The notes beneath the pieces are model-generated. The model was not told where the DNA came from. It was given only the letters and a program-made list of their open reading frames with translations, and did not search any database. Both the position numbers and the translations under genes were made by a program. Of a stretch of 64,000 nt of DNA, positions 1,659 through 35,955 are shown piece by piece (positions within the stretch are counted from its first letter, which is position 1; every line of letters begins with the position of its first letter). Source of the stretch: Candidatus Nomurabacteria bacterium (lineage in GTDB: Bacteria > Patescibacteriota > Patescibacteriia > UBA1558 > GWA2-36-10); contig JACKFO010000002.1 in NCBI GenBank assembly GCA_020632415.1, forward strand, positions 642,732-706,731, in the 5' to 3' direction.

Positions 1659-2693
1659 ATGAACTTAAACGACTTATTTAAAATTGCCTCACAATCAAAA
1701 GCTTCTGACTTACATTTGATTGTTGGTAAACCACCGATCTTAAGAATTGACGGTGAACTAAGAGCAATTCCAAATACCGAAGTACTAAGTAAAGCTAATG
1801 CTGAAAAAATGATCTTTAGCATTATCACTGAAAAACAACGCGATCAGTTTATTGCCGAAAGAGAGCTGGATATTTCTTATGAAATTACCGGTTACTCTCG
1901 TTATCGAGTTAATTTGCACTGGGAAAAAGATAATGTCGGCATGGTTGCTCGAGTTATTTCACAAATTATTCCTTCGATGGAAGACTTGGGCTTGCCACCA
2001 ATTGTCCATCGTTTAATCGAGCGTGAACAAGGCTTGATTTTGATCACTGGTCCAACTGGTTGTGGCAAATCCACTACTCTAGCAGCAATGATTGAAAAAA
2101 TAAACAACATTCGTTTTGCTAACATTATTACCTTAGAGGATCCGATTGAATACATCTTCAAACCAGATAAAAGTATTATCAAACAAAGACAATTAGGCAC
2201 CGACATGCTTACTTTTGGCAATGCCTTGAAACATGTCTTAAGACAAGACCCAAATGTAATCATGGTTGGTGAGATGCGCGACTTAGAAACTATCGCTGCC
2301 ACGATTACGCTTGCTGAAACTGGTCATTTAGTTCTCGCTACCTTACACACACATAATGCTGCTCAAACCATCGATCGTATCATCGACGTTTTTCCTCCAC
2401 ACCAACAAGCACAGGTCAGATTACAACTTTCAATGTCTTTAAGCGGTGTTATTTCTCAAAAACTTTTACCAAAAATTGGCGGTGGCCGAGTAGCTGCTCG
2501 TGAAATTTTGATCAATACTCCAGCGGTAGCAAATATTGTTCGTGAAAATAAAGTGCCTCAAATTAAAACTGTAATCCAAACCTCTGCCGACGTTGGCATG
2601 TTTTCAATGGATCAAAACATTCGCGAGCTTTTAGAAAATAAACTAATCGATGAGCCAACCGCTATGGCTCATACCACAACAAGCCAAAAATAA
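1659..2693 (+). CDS. pilT: type IV pilus retraction ATPase PilT
   Basis: 344 aa with Walker A GPTGCGKST; typical PilT/PilU length and motifs (PilT N-terminal region, Asp box, His box region). Confidence 0.8.
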   Translation: MNLNDLFKIASQSKASDLHLIVGKPPILRIDGELRAIPNTEVLSKANAEKMIFSIITEKQRDQFIAERELDISYEITGYSRYRVNLHWEKDNVGMVARVISQIIPSMEDLGLPPIVHRLIEREQGLILITGPTGCGKSTTLAAMIEKINNIRFANIITLEDPIEYIFKPDKSIIKQRQLGTDMLTFGNALKHVLRQDPNVIMVGEMRDLETIAATITLAETGHLVLATLHTHNAAQTIDRIIDVFPPHQQAQVRLQLSMSLSGVISQKLLPKIGGGRVAAREILINTPAVANIVRENKVPQIKTVIQTSADVGMFSMDQNIRELLENKLIDEPTAMAHTTTSQK

Positions 2694-2712
2694 AAAATAA
2701 TTTCTTTACAGA

Positions 2713-3669
2713 ATGAATGGTTTTAAATTAGAGCAAATTACGCTTTTTCAAAATTTGAGCAAAAGTGAACTTAAAATTGTCTCTAATTTTTTATTAGAAA
2801 AAAACTATCAAGCTGAAGATAAAATTTTCAAAAAAGATTCTATCCGTGACAAAGTGATCATTATTAAAGATGGCTTAGTGAAATTGCAAACTGAAATTGC
2901 TGACCATCAAGAAATCATCGCCCTCTTCAAAGATGGAGACTTTTTGGGAGAAATGGCTTTTTTAGAAAAAGGCAGTCACCACCAGCATTCTTTAGAAGTT
3001 GCTAGTCCTCGCTTGAGTACTTTGGAATTTTCAGTTTATCACTGGTACAAAATCTTAAAAGAACACCCAGAAATTTCTAGAAAAATTTATCAAAATATTG
3101 CGATTAGTTTAAAAAATCGTTTGGACCATGCAAACAATAAACTAGTCACTCTTTTTGCTTCTGGCCAAATCATTGCCAAGTATGACAACATCGAAGATAT
3201 TAGTCGTCACTTGATCGAAATCATCCAAAAAGTTATTCCTTGTCAAAAAACATTATTTATTACCAGTAGCCAAGGAAATGAAAGGTTCGTTGTCCGACAT
3301 CTAAGTGGCTACAAAAATATCAAGCTGGGAGAAATTTTTAATGCCAACCAAGATCCTCTCTTAGAAGAAATAATGACTAAGGCTGAAACAAAAATATTTC
3401 AAAAAAATACTTGGCCAAAGAATTTTATCAATCTCAAATATGTTAGCAATTCTTTGATTGTCGCTCCAATAAAAATCGCTCGCAAAATAACTGGCTTTAT
3501 TATTTTGGCCGACAAGCTAAATGGTCGAGCATTTAGCATGAACAATCAAATTCTTTTAGAAGCTATTGCTACTCAAATCGCTCCGATTATCGAAGAAGAA
3601 AGATTGTTAAATTTTCAAAACTCTAGCGATGACTTAAAAAGAGTCTATATCGACCCTTTTTCTTCTTAG
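2713..3669 (+). CDS. cyclic-nucleotide-binding (CAP-like) plus GAF-like domain protein, putative regulator
   Basis: N-terminal region with FGEMAFL-type cNMP-binding motif; C-terminal half resembles a GAF domain; immediately downstream of pilT. Confidence 0.4.
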   Translation: MNGFKLEQITLFQNLSKSELKIVSNFLLEKNYQAEDKIFKKDSIRDKVIIIKDGLVKLQTEIADHQEIIALFKDGDFLGEMAFLEKGSHHQHSLEVASPRLSTLEFSVYHWYKILKEHPEISRKIYQNIAISLKNRLDHANNKLVTLFASGQIIAKYDNIEDISRHLIEIIQKVIPCQKTLFITSSQGNERFVVRHLSGYKNIKLGEIFNANQDPLLEEIMTKAETKIFQKNTWPKNFINLKYVSNSLIVAPIKIARKITGFIILADKLNGRAFSMNNQILLEAIATQIAPIIEEERLLNFQNSSDDLKRVYIDPFSS

Positions 3670-3707
3670 TTGATTTCTAGAGACTTTTGTGTTAACTTAT
3701 CTTCTGT

Positions 3708-3782
3708 GCCCTTGTGGTGAAATGGATATCACGCTTGGCTTCGGACCAAGAATTGTGGGTTCGATCCCTGCCGAGGGCACCA
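3708..3782 (+). tRNA. tRNA-Arg (anticodon TCG)
   Basis: Cloverleaf folds by eye: acceptor gcccttg/cgagggc, anticodon stem cttgg/ccaag with loop cttcgga, T-loop ttcgatc, 3' CCA. Confidence 0.75.
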
Positions 3783-10562: not shown

Positions 10563-10688
10563 GGGTTCTGGCGATGACCTACTCTCGCAACCCTAAATGG
10601 GTTACTACCATCGGCCTTGAAGAGCTTAACTGCTGAGTTCGAAATGGGATCAGGTGTGGCCTCTCCAGTAGAACCACCAGAACTCTAT
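10563..10688 (-). rRNA. rrf: 5S rRNA
   Basis: Reverse complement reads ...CCGATGGTAGT...GAGAGTAGG..CGCCAG, the conserved 5S helices; lies directly downstream of 23S. Confidence 0.8.
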
Positions 10689-10877
10689 CGTCCTCGAAAA
10701 AATAAATTTATAAATCGAAACATCGTTTCCTAACCTAATACTATTTGATTGATCGGCGTGAATAACATCACGACACCCAATAATAATATCAAGCCAATGA
10801 AAAGTAAAACGATTTTAATCATTTAAACAATGTTTAAGAACAAAAAATTTGTATAAAAATTTCCAAAATTTTTAGTG

Positions 10878-13995
<3,118 letters not shown>

Positions 13996-14366
13996 AAAAA
14001 TTCTGAAAACTTTTGGCACTAAAATTTTTTATGAGTAATACAAATTTATACTTAAAATTGAATTGATAAATTATCGAATCTATCAATTTTTAAAAGATGC
14101 TCTTAAACATTATTGTTTAAAAAATTATTTACTTGTCAAAGTTCTTGTGTTGCTAAATTTAATTACTTGGCAACAAGCAGTTCTTTAGTGGATCGCGCAA
14201 AGCCTACCCATAAAAAACTGCTTGCTAACAACTAATTTTCAAAGAGACAAAAAACCGCTTTTTAGGCGGCTCAAAAAGTAGAGAATTAACTTTCTGAACC
14301 TTAGATTTTTAACTTAACTAATTGTCCTAACATGTATTATTTCTTCTCCTTAATAAAGGTAGGCGT

Positions 14367-14395
14367 ATTATATACTATTTTTCATAGCTTGTCAA
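14367..14395 (-). promoter_or_regulatory. consensus sigma70 promoter (TTGACA-17-TATAAT) on the minus strand, about 370 nt upstream of 23S
   Basis: Reverse complement of 14367-14395 reads ttgaca agctatgaaaaatagta tataat. Confidence 0.45.
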
Positions 14396-26382: not shown

Positions 26383-27861
<1,479 letters not shown>

Positions 27862-28177
27862 AAATAAAGTTTGCACATCTTGCTAAAAGATGTGTTTGGC
27901 TCGAGTTGTTACTCGAAATATGATTGACTTGTCCAAACTTTTAGTTGGACAATAAAATTTAAAAATTGACTTATGGTTTAACTAAAAACGGTTCACTTTT
28001 TAGTTGTCAAATATTTATTTGTCAAAAAACATTGTTTTTCTTGCTTATAGATAGCTTCTAAAGTTCAAGAAAAAACAGCAATGTCCAAAGACCTTAGACA
28101 CTTCTGTTTTTTCTCGGGTGCAACTCCCTTAATTTCTTTGTAAATCAGCTACGACTTTATTTTTTTAATGCTCCCGT

Positions 28178-28206: not shown

Positions 28207-28227
28207 GCCTTTTAAGCCTCCTGGAAA

Positions 28228-30381: not shown

Positions 30382-32949
30382 TTAAGCAGCTATTTCATCA
30401 GCTTGATCAAAATTGATTGATAATAAATTTGAAATGCCATCATCGCCCATTGTCACGCCATAGATTATTTTTGCCTTGTGCATCAAAGCACGATTATGAG
30501 TAATGCCAATAAACTGCGTCTTATCAGAAAGCTCGGCTAAAATATCCGCTAAACGAATTGAATTTGCTTCATCCAAAGCTGCATCAACTTCATCCAAAAC
30601 CACAAATGGAGAAGGATTGTTAGCAATAATTGCGCAAATCAAAGCAATCGAGGTCAATGCCTTCTCGCCACCGGAAAGCATATTGATGCCAGAAAGTTTT
30701 TTTCCAGGAGGTGTGGCTAAAATTTCAATTCCATATTGCTTTTTGGTTTTTACTTCTTCTGGGTTATCATCTGAAAGATCGTCTTGATTTTCAGTTGAAG
30801 AATTGTCCAATGAAATTTCTTTGATATCCAAAATTAATTGCGCCCTACCGCCATTAAACAATTTTTTAAAATAACCACTAAACAATTGATTGATGTTTTG
30901 AAAAGCTTCATCAAACTGTTGAGAAATAGTTTCTTCTAAATCTTTAATTACTTTTTCCAAATGTTTAATTGCCTCATTTAAATCAGCAACTTGCGTACTC
31001 AAAAAAACAAAACGTTGATTAACTTCTTCGTACTCTTCTAAGACGCCTTGATCGATGGCGCCAATTTGGCTTAATTGATTTTTCAGGCTACTAATTTTTT
31101 GACGAGCAAGCTCTACTTCTAAATCTGCTGAAAATTTTACTCTGGAAAAACTTTTTGCCTCTTGTAAAATCTCTAGATCTAAATCTTCTTTTTTAGTTTC
31201 GACTTTAGCCATCAAAACTTTCACTTCATTAAGTTCGTTGTTTTTGGAATTAAATTCACTCTGTAATTCTCTAAATCTTTTTTGGTCAGCCAACAAAGAA
31301 GACTTCATTGTTTCTTCTTGCTGATTAAACTCAGCAATTTGCTGAGAAATTTCTACTGACAACTTTTCTTTTTCTTCAATTTTTGCTTCCAACTCTTTCA
31401 GCTGTTGATCAACTACGCTTGCTGATGGATTTGAACCAGCTGTTTGCAAATCACTCTCTATTTTTTTTAAATCATTTTCTGCCTGACTGATCTGCTCTTT
31501 GATTTGTTGCAAACTATGTTCTAAAACCGTTACTTCGGTTTTGGCCGAATTAACCTCGCTAACTAAATTATCTTTTTCTCCTAAAAGTTTATTAAACTCT
31601 AACTGCCAATTAATTTTTTGATCATCTGGACTTTCTTTGATTGAATGCCAAAGTCTTTTGGTATTTTCTTTCAAAGAATCAAAAATATTTCGCAAAGTTC
31701 CTAATTCTTCCAAATTTTTAATCTCAAAAACTTGAGAAAACAAATCATCTTGCGCTTGCACAATTTTTTCTAATTCTTCTGAAATATTTCCTTTAGAAAA
31801 ATTTTGTTGTTCTTGTAATTTTTTTTCTAAATCTTTAAACTGCGCAAGAATAGCTTGCTGTTTATTTTCCAGTTCAGCTAAAACTTCTTTTTTGCTAACT
31901 AATTCTTTATTTTTATCATTCAAAAATAACCTGTTTTTTTGAATGAGGTTAACTAATTCTTGCTGACGATTTTTTAGCCAAACCAAATCTCCTTTTCCTC
32001 CGGATAATAATTTTAAATCAGCCTTAGCTTCCAAAATCGTCTTTTCTTTTAACAAAGAATTTAGTTCATTTTGTTCTTGCTTTAGTTTGTCTTGTAAATT
32101 TTGGAATTTATCCTGCCGGGAATCAGCTTTGCTATGTTTATCCAAGTTGGTCTGCAAGACAACTAACTCTTGATTTAAGCTGCTGACTATTTTTTTTAAA
32201 CGATCGTGCTCACTTTGATTAGAGGCTAAGTCATTTTCTAGGTGGCTCAATAAAAAACTGTAATAATTGTTTTGTAATTCTTGTAATTCTTTTTCTAAGC
32301 CCTCTCTTCTCTCCAATTTATTTACCTGGCGAGTTAAGCTTTTTAAACGAGGCTCCAGTTCAGCTAAAATTTGATCAGTTTGTTCTAAATTTTCTTTTGA
32401 ATGTTCTAGCTTAGAAATTGCTTGATCTTTTTTGATCTGAAATTGTTTAACGCCAGTTGCTTCATCAAAAAACTCTTTTCTTTCAGCAGCAGAAGAAGTT
32501 AAAATCGAATCAATCATTCCCTGACCAATTACGCTGTAAGTCTTTTGACCAAAGTTTGCTTGAGCAAGTAAAAGCTGGACATCTAATAAACGAACTTTGT
32601 TGTTGTTAATCAAATATTCGCTTTCTCCTTTACGATCAATTTTACGAGAAATAATCACTTGTTCATAATCAATGTCCGCTTTACGATCATGATTGTTTAA
32701 ATACAAGTCAACTTGGGCATAACCAAGCTTTCCTTTTTTATCAGATCCCGCAAAAATAACATCATCTGATTTCTTGCCACGTAAAGTTTTGGCACTTTGC
32801 TCACCCAAAACCCAACGCACAGCATCAGCAATATTTGATTTTCCAGAACCGTTTGGTCCGACAATAGCGGTCAGCTCACGATTAAAAACCAGCGTGCTGG
32901 CTCTGGCAAATGATTTAAAACCTTGAATTTCTAGTTTCTCTAAATACAT
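30382..32949 (-). CDS. smc: chromosome segregation protein SMC (short, about 855 aa)
   Basis: N-terminal MYLEKLEIQGFKSF...GPNGSGKSN Walker A; long coiled coil; C-terminal LSGGEKALTSIAL signature and DEVDAALD Walker B; start at internal M29 of the track ORF. Confidence 0.8.
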   Translation of the reverse strand: MYLEKLEIQGFKSFARASTLVFNRELTAIVGPNGSGKSNIADAVRWVLGEQSAKTLRGKKSDDVIFAGSDKKGKLGYAQVDLYLNNHDRKADIDYEQVIISRKIDRKGESEYLINNNKVRLLDVQLLLAQANFGQKTYSVIGQGMIDSILTSSAAERKEFFDEATGVKQFQIKKDQAISKLEHSKENLEQTDQILAELEPRLKSLTRQVNKLERREGLEKELQELQNNYYSFLLSHLENDLASNQSEHDRLKKIVSSLNQELVVLQTNLDKHSKADSRQDKFQNLQDKLKQEQNELNSLLKEKTILEAKADLKLLSGGKGDLVWLKNRQQELVNLIQKNRLFLNDKNKELVSKKEVLAELENKQQAILAQFKDLEKKLQEQQNFSKGNISEELEKIVQAQDDLFSQVFEIKNLEELGTLRNIFDSLKENTKRLWHSIKESPDDQKINWQLEFNKLLGEKDNLVSEVNSAKTEVTVLEHSLQQIKEQISQAENDLKKIESDLQTAGSNPSASVVDQQLKELEAKIEEKEKLSVEISQQIAEFNQQEETMKSSLLADQKRFRELQSEFNSKNNELNEVKVLMAKVETKKEDLDLEILQEAKSFSRVKFSADLEVELARQKISSLKNQLSQIGAIDQGVLEEYEEVNQRFVFLSTQVADLNEAIKHLEKVIKDLEETISQQFDEAFQNINQLFSGYFKKLFNGGRAQLILDIKEISLDNSSTENQDDLSDDNPEEVKTKKQYGIEILATPPGKKLSGINMLSGGEKALTSIALICAIIANNPSPFVVLDEVDAALDEANSIRLADILAELSDKTQFIGITHNRALMHKAKIIYGVTMGDDGISNLLSINFDQADEIAA

Positions 32950-33040
32950 AGTGCAATTAAAAATAATCGCCAAAAGCAAATCCGCCTCTGGCGGAAAAAC
33001 TATTGATATTTTATCACATTTTCTTTTCTTCAACCAGTTT

Positions 33041-33086
33041 TAAAACAAAAAGAAAAATCGCTCAGTTCACAAAGGACACTGAGCGA
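33041..33086 (-). terminator. intrinsic terminator on the minus strand, immediately upstream of smc
   Basis: atcgctcagt/actgagcgat 10-bp stem; on the minus strand it is followed by tttttctttttgtttt. Confidence 0.45.
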
Positions 33087-33640
33087 TCGCAGCAGTTGTG
33101 CCGATCCACGGGGACCGGTCCGCCAAAACACCCAGTCGGGTGGTAGTGGCCAAAGGTAGCGGAAGGCGGCGCGGGGTTGAACGAATTCAGACTCGTCAAA
33201 ACGCGAACGAGAAGCCTCGCACCTCACCTTTGCAGTCGCGTCAACAGCCCGCAAGGCCTCTCGTGTTTACCACGAAATAGGAGGTTCCAATGGCATCGAA
33301 CGGTTGTGCGCCACCTTCCGCATTTTCTTTTCTTGCTAAAGAGCCAAGAAGACTTATTTAGTATAAGATCAGAAAAGAAAATTGTCAAATATATATTTAA
33401 ACAAAAGAAAAACTGCCCAGTTCTCAAGGAACTCTGGGCAGCTTGGGGGGCCTCTTTCGAGGCGTCGTCGCAGCAGCAGAAAGCCGGGGCACAGGGAGCG
33501 TCACACACACAGGTCGGTAGGAAGTTATCTGGAAAAGTCCAGGCGGACTTTTGGCTGCAAAATAAGGAAGGAGCACAAAATCATTATCAAAATACACGAA
33601 AACAATTATTTTGTCAAGACCAACAAAAAACTCATCTGTC
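33087..33640 (-). ncRNA. GC-rich, ORF-poor region: candidate structured RNA gene(s) of unknown class
   Basis: G+C far above flanks; only overlapping, biased-composition ORFs on both strands; bounded by three minus-strand intrinsic terminators (33041-86, 33398-440, 33641-79). Confidence 0.25.
33398..33440 (-). terminator. intrinsic terminator on the minus strand inside the GC-rich island
   Basis: ctgcccag/ctgggcag 8-bp stem followed on the minus strand by tttttcttttgttt. Confidence 0.4.
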
Positions 33641-33679
33641 CAAATAAAAAACATTCCGCCAAAGTCAGACTTTGGCGGA
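33641..33679 (-). terminator. intrinsic terminator on the minus strand downstream of rnc
   Basis: ttccgccaaag/ctttggcggaa 11-bp stem followed on the minus strand by tgttttttattt. Confidence 0.45.
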
Positions 33680-33774
33680 ACGGAGCGCTCTCAAAAACCA
33701 TTACGGTAAGTAGATCCGGATCTGGCCTCTGGGCAGCTACACAATCATTTGAGTAAAAGAGCTATTATCTAAGT

Positions 33775-34476
33775 TTATTTATCTTCCCAGCCTTTTTTCA
33801 ACAAGCCTTTAGCAGCAGCATCAGTTTGCGCTTCCTGTTTACTAAAACCTTCGCCTTCAGCTACTAATTCTTTTTCTAAATAAACTCCGACAATAAATCT
33901 CTTATTATGATCTGGTCCTGATTCAGCAATCACTCGATAATTTGGTGTGATTCCGACTAACTCTTGAGCCTTTTCTTGAAAATTAGTTTTTGGATCAATA
34001 TATGATTTCTCTTCGATGATTTTTTCTAAATTAACAATCAAATTTTCTCTGATAAACTTTTCTGCTGTTTTATATCCTTGATCTAAATAGATTGCTCCCA
34101 CTACCGCTTCAAAAGTGTTGGCCAAAATATAGCTACGAGCTTTTTTATTTTTATCGCGAGCCTCTCCCCGACTCATATGAAGCCAACGATATAAGTCTAA
34201 ATTTTCTGAAGCGGCGGCAAGTTGATCACGATTTACTAAACTCGAGCGCCAATTAGTCAAAACACCCTCTGCTTCTTGAAAATTTTTATACAAATAATCA
34301 GTAACAACTAATTCTAGCACTGCGTCACCTAAAAATTCTAAACGCTCATTATGATCTAGGGCAAAGTTTTTATGTTCATTTAAATAAGATCTATGCACCA
34401 AAGCAGATTTTAAAAAGTCACGGTTCTTAAAAGTGACTTTTAGTTTCTCTTCCAAATCTTTCAAATTCTTCTCCAT
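33775..34476 (-). CDS. rnc: ribonuclease III
   Basis: ERLEFLGDAVLELVV RNase III signature; C-terminal dsRBD. Confidence 0.85.
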   Translation of the reverse strand: MEKNLKDLEEKLKVTFKNRDFLKSALVHRSYLNEHKNFALDHNERLEFLGDAVLELVVTDYLYKNFQEAEGVLTNWRSSLVNRDQLAAASENLDLYRWLHMSRGEARDKNKKARSYILANTFEAVVGAIYLDQGYKTAEKFIRENLIVNLEKIIEEKSYIDPKTNFQEKAQELVGITPNYRVIAESGPDHNKRFIVGVYLEKELVAEGEGFSKQEAQTDAAAKGLLKKGWEDK

Positions 34477-34482
34477 AAAAAA

Positions 34483-35346
34483 TTATTCTAAACCCAACTT
34501 CTTTAGTCCTAGATTAAAAATGTCATGAGCATTTTCATAACCTAATATTTTTTTTGCCTCTTCTTTGGAAAACCACTTTACGTCTTGTAATTCATTGACT
34601 TTCGGAACAGTTAGCTCGGTTTGATTGGTAAAAATCAAAAAATATTTAATCATTTTACGATAAGGGGTTTCATTTGGCTTATGTACTTTGACCTGTGTTT
34701 CTCCTAAATAATCGATGATTTCTAAGTTGTGTAAACCAGTTTCTTCTTCTAATTCTCTGACCGCAGCATCTTCTAAACTTTCGCCTTGTTCAACATGTCC
34801 TTTTGGAAAAGTCCACTTGCCATAAGCATCTAAAATCAAAACAAAATAATAACCATCGTCACTTTTGCGATAAATCAAACCACCAGCAGAAACTTCTTTG
34901 ATTCCTTGTTCTTCTAGATTTTGTTTTTCGCCATTTTGAGACATCTCTTTGTAGATACTACCTAAAACTCCGTTAACAAATTTACCAGATGAATCACCAC
35001 CAAAAGCTTTGGCTAGCTCTATTGCTTCGTTGATTGCTACTTTTGGTGGAATTTCCAAACTCATTTTCAATTCATAGATTCCGATCCGCAAAACATTACG
35101 ATCAACAATCGTGATTTGATCCAATGGCCATTCAGGAGCAAATTTTTTAATCAAAGCATCAAGCTCATTTTTTTTAGCAACAACTTGTTTTACCAACTCA
35201 TCAGCAAAACCCTGATCATCAAAATCAGGAGCAAACTCATCGTGATTTTTATGCAAAATCTCAGAAGGAACTGCGTTGCCCTCTTTAAAATCCCATTCAA
35301 ATAATGATTGTAAGGCTAAAGTTCGAGCTAAATGTCGATTGGCCAT
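34483..35346 (-). CDS. nusB: NusB antitermination factor fused to a C-terminal NUDIX hydrolase domain
   Basis: N-terminus MANRHLARTLALQSLFEWDF is NusB-like; C-terminus has NUDIX box GHVEQGESLEDAAVRELEEETGL. Confidence 0.65.
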   Translation of the reverse strand: MANRHLARTLALQSLFEWDFKEGNAVPSEILHKNHDEFAPDFDDQGFADELVKQVVAKKNELDALIKKFAPEWPLDQITIVDRNVLRIGIYELKMSLEIPPKVAINEAIELAKAFGGDSSGKFVNGVLGSIYKEMSQNGEKQNLEEQGIKEVSAGGLIYRKSDDGYYFVLILDAYGKWTFPKGHVEQGESLEDAAVRELEEETGLHNLEIIDYLGETQVKVHKPNETPYRKMIKYFLIFTNQTELTVPKVNELQDVKWFSKEEAKKILGYENAHDIFNLGLKKLGLE

Positions 35347-35358
35347 GATTTTATTTTT

Positions 35359-35550
35359 TTATTTTTTAGAAATATTTTTCGCAGGCACTTTTTTCTCACC
35401 TTTAAAATAACCGCATTTAGGGCAGGCACGGTGTGGCAAAATGCTAGCACTACAATTTTTACAAACCAAAACACTTGGTTTTTTTAAGGCAAAATGAGAA
35501 GCTCTTCTGCGAGCTGACGATTTTGTACGTTTTTGTGAAGGTAAACCCAT
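35359..35550 (-). CDS. rpmF: 50S ribosomal protein L32
   Basis: 63 aa; KRTKSSARRRASH...C-x2-C...C-x2-C zinc ribbon typical of L32. Confidence 0.8.
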   Translation of the reverse strand: MGLPSQKRTKSSARRRASHFALKKPSVLVCKNCSASILPHRACPKCGYFKGEKKVPAKNISKK

Positions 35551-35698
35551 AAAATTATTTAATTTATTAGAAAATCTTTTTGTGGCTTAGATAATACTGG
35601 AAAAAACCACTTTGGTCAAGATAAGTATCCAAATTATACCACAAAGCTTAAGAAAAAGCGACATTTTAAAGCTTAATCTAAATGTTTTTAAAATGGAC

Positions 35699-35733: not shown

Positions 35734-35955
35734 TCCAGTAAGGAAAACATCAAAAATAGAAATTAAAATAAAAAATCCCTAAAAACAGCAGATTTAAAAA
35801 GCATCTTTCTAGCTAGCTGTGTCCACGACAAGCATGGGGATCATTTTTGGATTTCATTCGGCTCAGGCTAAATTATTTCTAATAATGATTTTCTTGGACG
35901 CAGCTAATTGGAAAGATTCTAAAAACAAAAACCGCCTGTAATCAGGCGATTTTTT
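35734..35955 (+). ncRNA. candidate ~220-nt sRNA (promoter to intrinsic terminator), class unknown
   Basis: Transcript bounded by the promoter above and the cgcctg-taat-caggcg hairpin plus T8 at 35931-35955; lies between convergent/divergent minus-strand genes; only a 35-aa ORF without SD inside. Confidence 0.3.

Follow-up and report, generated by a model that had tools for sequence, protein, structure and literature searches.

NusB, one of the most conserved single-domain bacterial transcription factors, is known as the BoxA-binding subunit of the ribosomal RNA (rRNA) and lambda-N antitermination complexes, and in its canonical form is a single domain of ~140 residues. The small diadenosine polyphosphate (ApnA) hydrolases of the Nudix superfamily, a group with aq_158, Ndx1, CT771 and NUDT2, are stand-alone enzymes of 126-150 residues. 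One of these, Aquifex aeolicus aq_158 (PDB 3I7U/3I7V), described as an 'Ap4A hydrolase', has been renamed Omnivore RNA pyrophosphatase: in vitro it converts RNA bearing a 5' triphosphate (PPP), a diphosphate (PP) or an Ap4, NAD, FAD, m7Gppp or sugar cap to 5'-monophosphate (5'-P) RNA, and its E51A variant is inactive (PMC13145063, 2026). Human NUDT2 trims PPP-RNA to P-RNA for XRN1 (PMC8616924), and in E. coli and Firmicutes it is established that RNA can carry nucleoside tetraphosphate (Np4) caps, which Nudix and other hydrolases take off (PMC7044304, PMC8833179, PMC13010140). Here we describe a gene in which the two kinds of protein are joined, a nusB::NUDIX fusion that adds a ~140-residue C-terminal NUDIX domain to NusB, in a 64,000-nucleotide (nt) stretch of the genome of a Candidatus Nomurabacteria bacterium, one of the ultra-small Patescibacteria (GCA_020632415.1, contig JACKFO010000002.1, positions 642,732 to 706,731; hereafter the window). 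The gene and its parts, in window positions, are as follows.

34483..35346, minus strand: nusB::NUDIX fusion gene encoding 287 residues, from the reading frame and Pfam.
34933..35346, minus strand: NusB domain, residues 1-138; PF01029 and TIGR01951 over their cut-offs.
34897..34932, minus strand: inter-domain linker, residues 139-150, GEKQxLxSQGIKE in the clade of the window protein (window clade), from an alignment of 27 clade members.
34486..34896, minus strand: NUDIX domain, residues 151-287, aq_158/Ndx1/NUDT2-like; PF00293, sequence matches in the PDB and Foldseek.
34732..34800, minus strand: Nudix box G183-x5-E189-x7-R197-E198-L-x-E201-E202-x-G204-L205, read directly from the sequence.

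The gene is a single ATG-initiated open reading frame (ORF) of 287 codons and a stop, with no internal stops and a level guanine-plus-cytosine (GC) content across the NusB/NUDIX junction. Its product is 100% identical to a database protein (P0001) named 'transcription antitermination factor NusB [Candidatus Nomurabacteria bacterium]'. An earlier note on this DNA, made from the sequence alone, had proposed a NusB-like N-terminus and a complete NUDIX box at the C-terminus, and Pfam found both domains: NusB (PF01029) over residues 7-133 (E 1.4e-35, 123 bits vs a cut-off of 23.1) and NUDIX (PF00293) over residues 152-267 (E 3.7e-22, 79.2 bits vs a cut-off of 21.1). The nusB equivalog model TIGR01951 (NCBIfam) scored 135.3 bits against a cut-off of 88.35, and the NusB half could be aligned end to end with NusB of E. 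coli, T. maritima and Aquifex, including the VAINEAIELAK-FG---S-KFVNGVL signature. In the AlphaFold2 (AF2) model this half is all-helical, with seven helices over residues 2-138 and a predicted local distance difference test (pLDDT) score mostly >90, and Foldseek superposed it on T. maritima NusB (1tzv) with a template modelling (TM) score of 0.86 and a root-mean-square deviation (rmsd) of 2.3 Å. The gene also fills the rpmF-[ ]-rnc-smc slot that is held by a plain nusB in six related loci (L074 and L076-L080), as a positional orthologue would. By hidden Markov model, fold, hallmark motifs and genomic position, the N-terminal half is a complete NusB.

A NusB-fold RNA-binding domain joined to an RNA-modifying catalytic domain is also the design of RsmB/Sun (RsmB being a 16S rRNA 5-methylcytosine methyltransferase), but in the window protein the catalytic domain is Nudix and not a methyltransferase, and the N-terminal half is NusB proper. 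RsmB models matched the NusB half weakly, far below their cut-offs (62 vs 319).

The NUDIX half is equally well defined. The motif GHVEQGESLEDAAVRELEEETGL (residues 183-205) is an exact fit to GX5EX7REUXEEXGU, and the AF2 model has strands at 149-162, 165-173, 209-221, 229-239 and 253-260, while the helix of the box spans 191-203. Searched against the PDB with phmmer, this half found aq_158 (3i7u, 4.5e-18), Ndx1 (1vc8, 5.4e-14), 4ilq (4e-10) and 1kt9 (8e-10) as its best matches, its relatives being aq_158, Thermus Ndx1, Chlamydia CT771 and the C. elegans and human Ap4A hydrolases. Foldseek returned 543 PDB matches at E <= 0.001, of which 49 among the 50 listed were Nudix structures; ranks 1-8 were taken by 3i7u, 4mpo, 1ktg, 1vc8 and 4ilq, with mycobacterial MutT1/Rv2985 and NUDT2 further down, and the superposition on 3i7u gave a TM score of 0.88-0.90 and an rmsd of 1.5-1.9 Å at 38-39% identity. 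Sequence and fold alike thus place the NUDIX half with the small ApnA hydrolases aq_158, Ndx1, CT771 and NUDT2, with which it has in common the W-T/S-F-P-K-G-H/N-x-E-x-G-E lead-in and an intact REUXEE. It differs from these stand-alone enzymes in being fused to NusB, and the strand after the box, Tyr/Trp-rich in aq_158 (HYWY), reads KVHK in the window protein. By our residue count in the phmmer alignment, E202 of the window protein aligns with E51 of aq_158. From its intact box, the NUDIX half is predicted to be catalytically competent.

The same note had suggested decapping in the style of RppH or NudC. As a family assignment this did not hold, since all the corresponding NCBIfam models scored far below their cut-offs: the RppH models NF001936, NF001938, NF001937, NF001935 and NF001934 at 24-36 bits vs 116-259 (the best, NF001936, at 36.4 vs 118), the YtkD model TIGR02705 at 34.8 vs 154.4 and the NudC model NF001299 at 30.6 vs 158. 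MutT, MutT1 and NudE-J were rejected on the same grounds. The motif SQPWPFPxS downstream of the box is a NudC hallmark; in the window protein it is absent after the box, where HNLEIIDYLGETQVKVHKPNETPYRK stands instead, as is an N-terminal zinc-binding domain. What NudC and the window protein have in common is the Nudix fold, the N-terminal region of the latter being NusB. RppH (E. coli NudH; B. subtilis YtkD) is alike in fold and in the chemistry we propose below (PPP, PP and Np4 to 5'-P), but not in family. Removal of pyrophosphate or a cap from RNA 5' ends nevertheless stands as a reasonable hypothesis, and it does so only because aq_158 and NUDT2 act on such ends (PMC13145063, PMC8616924).

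The two halves are connected by a linker in which E140, K141 and E151 are invariant in 27/27 aligned clade members. The AF2 model has a mean pLDDT of 90.8 for the whole protein, ~60 for the linker, and an overall predicted TM score (pTM) of 0.55. Dcp2, with a helical regulatory domain and a Nudix domain, offers a loose architectural parallel to the fusion, with no evidence of kinship: Foldseek alignments spanning both halves (234-259 columns; 5n2v, 6y3z, 6am0, 5j3y) superposed at an rmsd of 13-15 Å and a TM score of ~0.34, and the resemblance was discarded.

The fusion gene lies between two same-strand genes, as the earlier note had it in proposing an rpmF-nusB-rnc operon; the gap from rpmF to the fusion gene is 12 nt and that from the fusion gene to rnc 6 nt.

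35591..35619, minus strand: promoter-like site TTGACC-17-TATTAT just 5' of rpmF (consensus scan, 10/12 matches; pattern evidence only).
35359..35550, minus strand: rpmF (ribosomal protein L32), first gene in the unit; PF01783, E 3.2e-14.
33775..34476, minus strand: rnc (RNase III), last gene in the unit; PF14622, PF00636 and dsrm.
33652..33682, minus strand: intrinsic-terminator-like hairpin, a 14-bp stem and then a T-run, closing the unit after rnc.

Given this tight spacing and the flanking promoter-like site and terminator-like hairpin, rpmF, the fusion gene and rnc look like one unit, the likely start of which is the promoter-like site at 35591..35619. The terminator-like hairpin at 35954..35927 belongs to the upstream vanW gene. 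No second nusB or NUDIX gene was found in the 64-kb window.

The fusion recurs widely. Both Pfam domains were present in all of the best 120 protein clusters (57-100% identity, 285-303 residues), which come from NCBI, JGI, ENA and Logan assemblies and many independent contigs and which, where named at all, are called 'transcription antitermination factor NusB' of Patescibacteria, Komeilibacteria, Parcubacteria or Nomurabacteria. Some taxon labels in the sequence records (e.g. 'Dormiibacterota', 'Gammaproteobacteria') probably reflect errors of binning or labelling. When 1.84 billion cluster representatives were scanned exhaustively with HMMER, 51 full-length fusions (30-54% identity) were among the best 150 matches. 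At the level of GTDB species, nusB and NUDIX are fused in 72 of the best 80 loci, down to ~37% identity and with one locus cut by the contig end, and are split and adjacent in two more. The order rpmF - nusB::NUDIX - rnc - smc is near-constant among these 80 loci, with rpmF preceding the fusion gene in most related loci and rnc following the fusion gene, the lone nusB or the split pair in nearly all; close relatives (73-86% identical) keep the wider order hsp20 - small ORF - vanW - rpmF - fusion - rnc - smc. The fusion had been called uncommon, which is true outside the phylum, but within Patescibacteria it is the usual state.

Split forms are found in Saccharimonadia, where nusB, NUDIX and rnc follow one another as separate genes (L071, L073, L081-L086). 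In two of these loci (L071 and L073) a nusB with its own stop is followed by a NUDIX gene with its own ATG and then by rnc. In L081-L086, the called nusB and NUDIX genes (~2559-3735 of the locus) share 17-26 nt in different frames, a gene for 48-50 residues without a Pfam match precedes nusB in the position that rpmF has in the window, and downstream one finds rnc - rpsP - KH-domain protein - trmD in place of rnc - smc. A search with the stand-alone NUDIX protein as query returned 2,749 proteins at E <= 1e-8, of which the best 120 have PF00293 only; the few named among these 120 are from Saccharibacteria, Saccharimonadales, Nanoperiomorbaceae and Nomurabacteria, and the JGI annotation is often 'diadenosine hexaphosphate hydrolase'. 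The three stand-alone loci inspected all had the NUDIX gene directly 3' of nusB, slightly overlapping it in another frame, and in two of the three rnc came next. NusB alone was encoded in the six loci with a plain nusB (141-168 residues, 62-67% identical to the NusB half of the window protein), with rnc directly downstream in four, where the downstream sequence was covered.

A NusB-domain tree (rough neighbour-joining, without support values) gave three groups: the split Saccharimonadia forms, the window clade and the Paceibacteria-type fusions. Within the window clade, fused and NusB-only genomes are interleaved, which suggests that the NusB-only members have secondarily lost the NUDIX domain. 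Pairwise identities of the two halves correlate (Pearson 0.80), at a mean of 64% for NusB vs 49% for NUDIX. Together with the occurrence of split and fused forms, this correlation marks the nusB-NUDIX partnership, by sequence comparison, as an old and vertically inherited feature of Patescibacteria, adjacent in some lineages and fused in others; such a fused-versus-adjacent pattern is a classic signature of a functional link. In one divergent lineage (L008, 766..3675), a 969-residue ORF just upstream of rpmF matches the window NUDIX half weakly (residues 404-497, E 9e-05) and could be a second protein with a Nudix domain close to the operon.

The catalytic box has fared differently in different parts of the family. 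In the window clade it reads GEREEEG in 114 and GDREEEG in 5 of 120 sequences, and it is likewise intact in 119/120 of the stand-alone forms. That the box is invariant over >40% sequence divergence in the window clade indicates selection on catalysis there, and the catalytic residues are, as judged from these alignments, under strict purifying selection. Among the Paceibacteria-type fusions the box is kept in 30/71 GTDB species loci and eroded in 41/71, and among the full-length representatives at 50% clustering it is intact in 9/51 and degenerate in 42/51. These degenerate boxes (for example GTIAKVKEEIGL, RVIKEELGL, REIKEKTGL and SKAIKKEIGL) were viewed individually and misalignment was excluded, 'degenerate' being a motif-based prediction; they fall into ~30 distinct patterns, mixed with intact ones across the tree. 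G155, D173, W178, T179, K182, L237, W258 and Y270 are at least 95% conserved, the degenerate-box fusions included, and the domain as such is not in decay. Loss of catalysis thus appears to have happened repeatedly in domains that kept their fold and presumably a binding surface, and such erosion with retention of the domain argues for a role of the module beyond hydrolysis. The window protein would sit in that part of the family where hydrolysis is still under selection.

We tentatively propose, at somewhat less than an even chance, that the fusion protein is an active pyrophosphohydrolase tethered by NusB and acting on the 5' ends of BoxA-bearing nascent rRNA leaders. In this scheme the NusB half, with S10 (NusE), would bind BoxA-type elements in the nascent leaders within the antitermination complex, and the flexibly linked NUDIX half would thereby come to lie next to the 5' end of the transcript so bound, where it would convert a 5' triphosphate, a diphosphate or a nucleotide-type cap (Np4, NAD) to a 5' monophosphate. 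Once freed by RNase III, the leader fragment would become a substrate for 5'-monophosphate-dependent decay, and non-canonical caps would be cleared from these heavily initiated rRNA transcripts; free ApnA would probably be hydrolysed too. The proposal draws on the reality of the fusion, its place in the nusB slot, the split pair in Saccharimonadia, the Pearson coefficient of 0.80, the conserved box and the homology to aq_158 and NUDT2, the substrate assignment being based on ~39% identity to the promiscuous aq_158 as characterised in vitro. In E. coli, Nus factors and RNase III are linked genetically, in that rnc mutations suppress Nus mutants (PMC4807359).

The rRNA genes of the window, at which such a protein would act, are unlinked, 16S and 23S lying ~12 kb apart.

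26383..27867, minus strand: 16S rRNA.
10873..13994, minus strand: 23S rRNA; the match spans 3122 nt vs a model of 2925 nt.
10566..10681, minus strand: 5S rRNA.

The 23S gene may contain an insertion. Strong promoter-like sites precede both large genes (TTGACA-17-TAAAAT near 28207 for 16S and TTGACA-17-TATAAT near 14394 for 23S), and ~100 to 170 nt downstream of these sites lie BoxA-like sequences, CTCTTTGAAAA at 14236..14246 in the leader of 23S and TGTTTTTTGACAA at 28031..28019 in that of 16S. An element TTTGACAA(N)TAAA is common to the two leaders (28026, 28011 and 14140).

Several observations weigh against a tethered decapping enzyme. The pattern YTCTTTRAMAA occurs three times vs 3.6 expected, so that the BoxA-like matches are no better than chance, and the common leader element also resembles a -35 box; the BoxA candidates were accordingly set aside as statistical support. 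With a pTM of 0.55 and a low-confidence linker, the orientation of the two domains is undefined in the model. Catalytic residues are lost in most Paceibacteria fused homologues, and the hydrolytic step is hence dispensable in many lineages; moreover, some close relatives are without the NUDIX domain altogether. Finally, Nudix substrates are not reliably predictable from sequence, and the activity of aq_158 on RNA is known in vitro only (PMC13145063).

Rather unlikely, in our estimate, is that the domain is a housekeeping hydrolase of Ap4A, Ap5A and Ap6A that clears free alarmones and was co-expressed with NusB and then fused to it, with a tether that has no targeting role. Its nearest homologues (aq_158, Ndx1, CT771 and the C. 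elegans and human Ap4A hydrolases) were indeed first characterised as Ap4A-Ap6A hydrolases, 1vc8 is a complex of Ndx1 with Ap6A, the split-form homologues carry the JGI label 'diadenosine hexaphosphate hydrolase', and a flexible linker with undefined orientation would suit two independent activities. However, a metabolic enzyme would have no obvious reason to stay fused or adjacent to nusB across several classes, nor would the domain to be retained after the loss of its catalytic glutamates, and the linker is conserved within the clade. Free-ApnA hydrolysis may, besides, be a subset of NusB-tethered decapping, given that ApnA hydrolases and RNA Np4 decappers overlap heavily (PMC8833179, PMC13145063).

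The eroded boxes bring in another alternative, in which what the NUDIX module conserves is a non-catalytic function. It would bind the 5' nucleotide or polyphosphate of the nascent leader, a nucleotide ligand or a protein partner, adding a subunit or a sensor to the rRNA antitermination complex, and hydrolysis would be an optional extra that the window clade has kept. The degenerate boxes in 42/51 representatives and 41/71 fused GTDB loci, in ~30 patterns interspersed with intact ones, favour it, as do the eight residues still conserved at >=95% in their midst. Regulators with non-enzymatic Nudix domains are recognised (PMC5389931), and the Nudix domain of NrtR is among the fold matches; SuhB, for its part, depends on NusB for its recruitment to rRNA and its role in growth is not tied to its phosphatase activity (PMC4807359). 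In SuhB of the E. coli rRNA transcription antitermination complex (rrnTAC) and in NrtR-type regulators, an enzyme-fold module is tied to a transcription factor and its enzymatic activity is not decisive. The likeness to SuhB bears on the degenerate-box fusions and is not one of homology. The box of the window protein is perfect and its invariance over >40% divergence bespeaks selection on catalysis; 'degenerate', moreover, rests on motif prediction. For the window protein we judge an essentially non-catalytic job slightly more doubtful than free-ApnA hydrolysis; for the family as a whole such a job is more probable than for this one protein.

A substrate of another kind is improbable, namely a nucleotide with a bearing on rRNA transcription, for instance (p)ppGpp or oxidised GTP (8-oxo-GTP), that would be cleaved locally where transcription proceeds. 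Some Nudix enzymes do degrade (p)ppGpp, and mycobacterial MutT1/Rv2985, which acts on 8-oxo-(d)GTP and diadenosine polyphosphates, was among the fold and sequence matches, but at ~25% identity these matches are clearly weaker than those to aq_158 and Ndx1, the MutT and MutT1 models fall far under their cut-offs, and nothing specific points to (p)ppGpp. Nudix enzymes are, in general, promiscuous (PMC13145063). The artefact against which the earlier note had asked for a check, two genes run together through a frameshift in sequencing or a missed stop, had no point found in its favour, split versions existing but in another class, and is refuted by the continuous ORF, the even GC content, the conserved linker and the recurrence of the same architecture in >120 clusters at 285-303 residues and in 72 GTDB loci.

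Both domains are well known, and what is new is their architecture and partnership. We found no mention of a NusB-Nudix fusion or gene pair in the literature searched on NusB, Nudix and Patescibacteria/Candidate Phyla Radiation, and the main survey of the Nudix clan does not mention NusB. A lineage-wide Nudix partnership of NusB, covalent or operonic, would be a new kind of accessory for the Nus machinery, and specialists would hardly have foreseen an RNA-end-type Nudix domain on NusB across a phylum, or that its catalytic site would be lost repeatedly with the domain kept. In the tiny genomes of Patescibacteria, a domain so widely kept is unlikely to be decorative. If tethering by NusB is true, the protein would be a first case in bacteria of an enzyme that deprotects RNA 5' ends being brought to a defined class of transcripts during transcription, and would join antitermination, RNase III processing, 5'-end-dependent decay and non-canonical capping, which are usually studied apart. 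Tethering would, in addition, place in a biological context the aq_158/Ndx1 group, whose in-vitro activities are known and for whose bacterial members the literature searched gives no in-vivo function. The repeated erosion of the box with the domain kept is a natural experiment in the passage from enzyme to binding module. More speculatively, and with about as much doubt as attaches to the free-ApnA and non-catalytic alternatives, the NUDIX domain could be an unrecognised, phylum-specific part of the Patescibacterial rRNA transcription and processing machine that couples the 5' terminus to the elongating polymerase, with hydrolysis ancestral, optional and repeatedly lost: a functional counterpart of SuhB with an enzyme fold of another kind.

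Downstream of the unit, the ORF-free spacer between rnc and smc (33040..33620, minus strand) has a GC content of 45-60% vs ~34% for the genome and seems to comprise two small transcription units, both having a promoter-like site and a terminator hairpin of their own. The first runs from ~33585 to 33400 (~180 nt, fold z -1.9) and the second from ~33355 to 33040 (~316 nt, minimum free energy -123 kcal/mol, z -4.2), the latter with a 14-bp long-range helix GCGGAAGGUGGCGC/GCGCCGCCUUCCGC. The spacer had no Rfam match at E <= 1, and at E <= 10 only unrelated families far below their gathering scores; no transfer-messenger RNA was found in it, nor any nhmmer match in 90 related loci. It may encode an unclassified small RNA. 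In relatives, the spacer varies from 70 nt to 3 kb; that of L089 agrees with the window in no more than the promoter and two motifs, AAGGUGGCG and ACAACCGUUYGAU. In L088 (5566..8632), whose fusion protein is 76% identical to that of the window, a 3-kb rnc-smc insertion with five small ORFs (86-176 residues) without a Pfam match sits exactly at the position that is variable in other relatives.

The mechanical ORF start of smc is a TTG at 33033 (minus strand), and the conserved SMC N-terminus (MYLEKLEIQGFKSF...) begins from an ATG near 32949, with a terminator-like hairpin (32993..32968) inside the putative extension. From the position of this N-terminus and the hairpin within the extension, the true smc start is probably ~84 nt downstream of the TTG.

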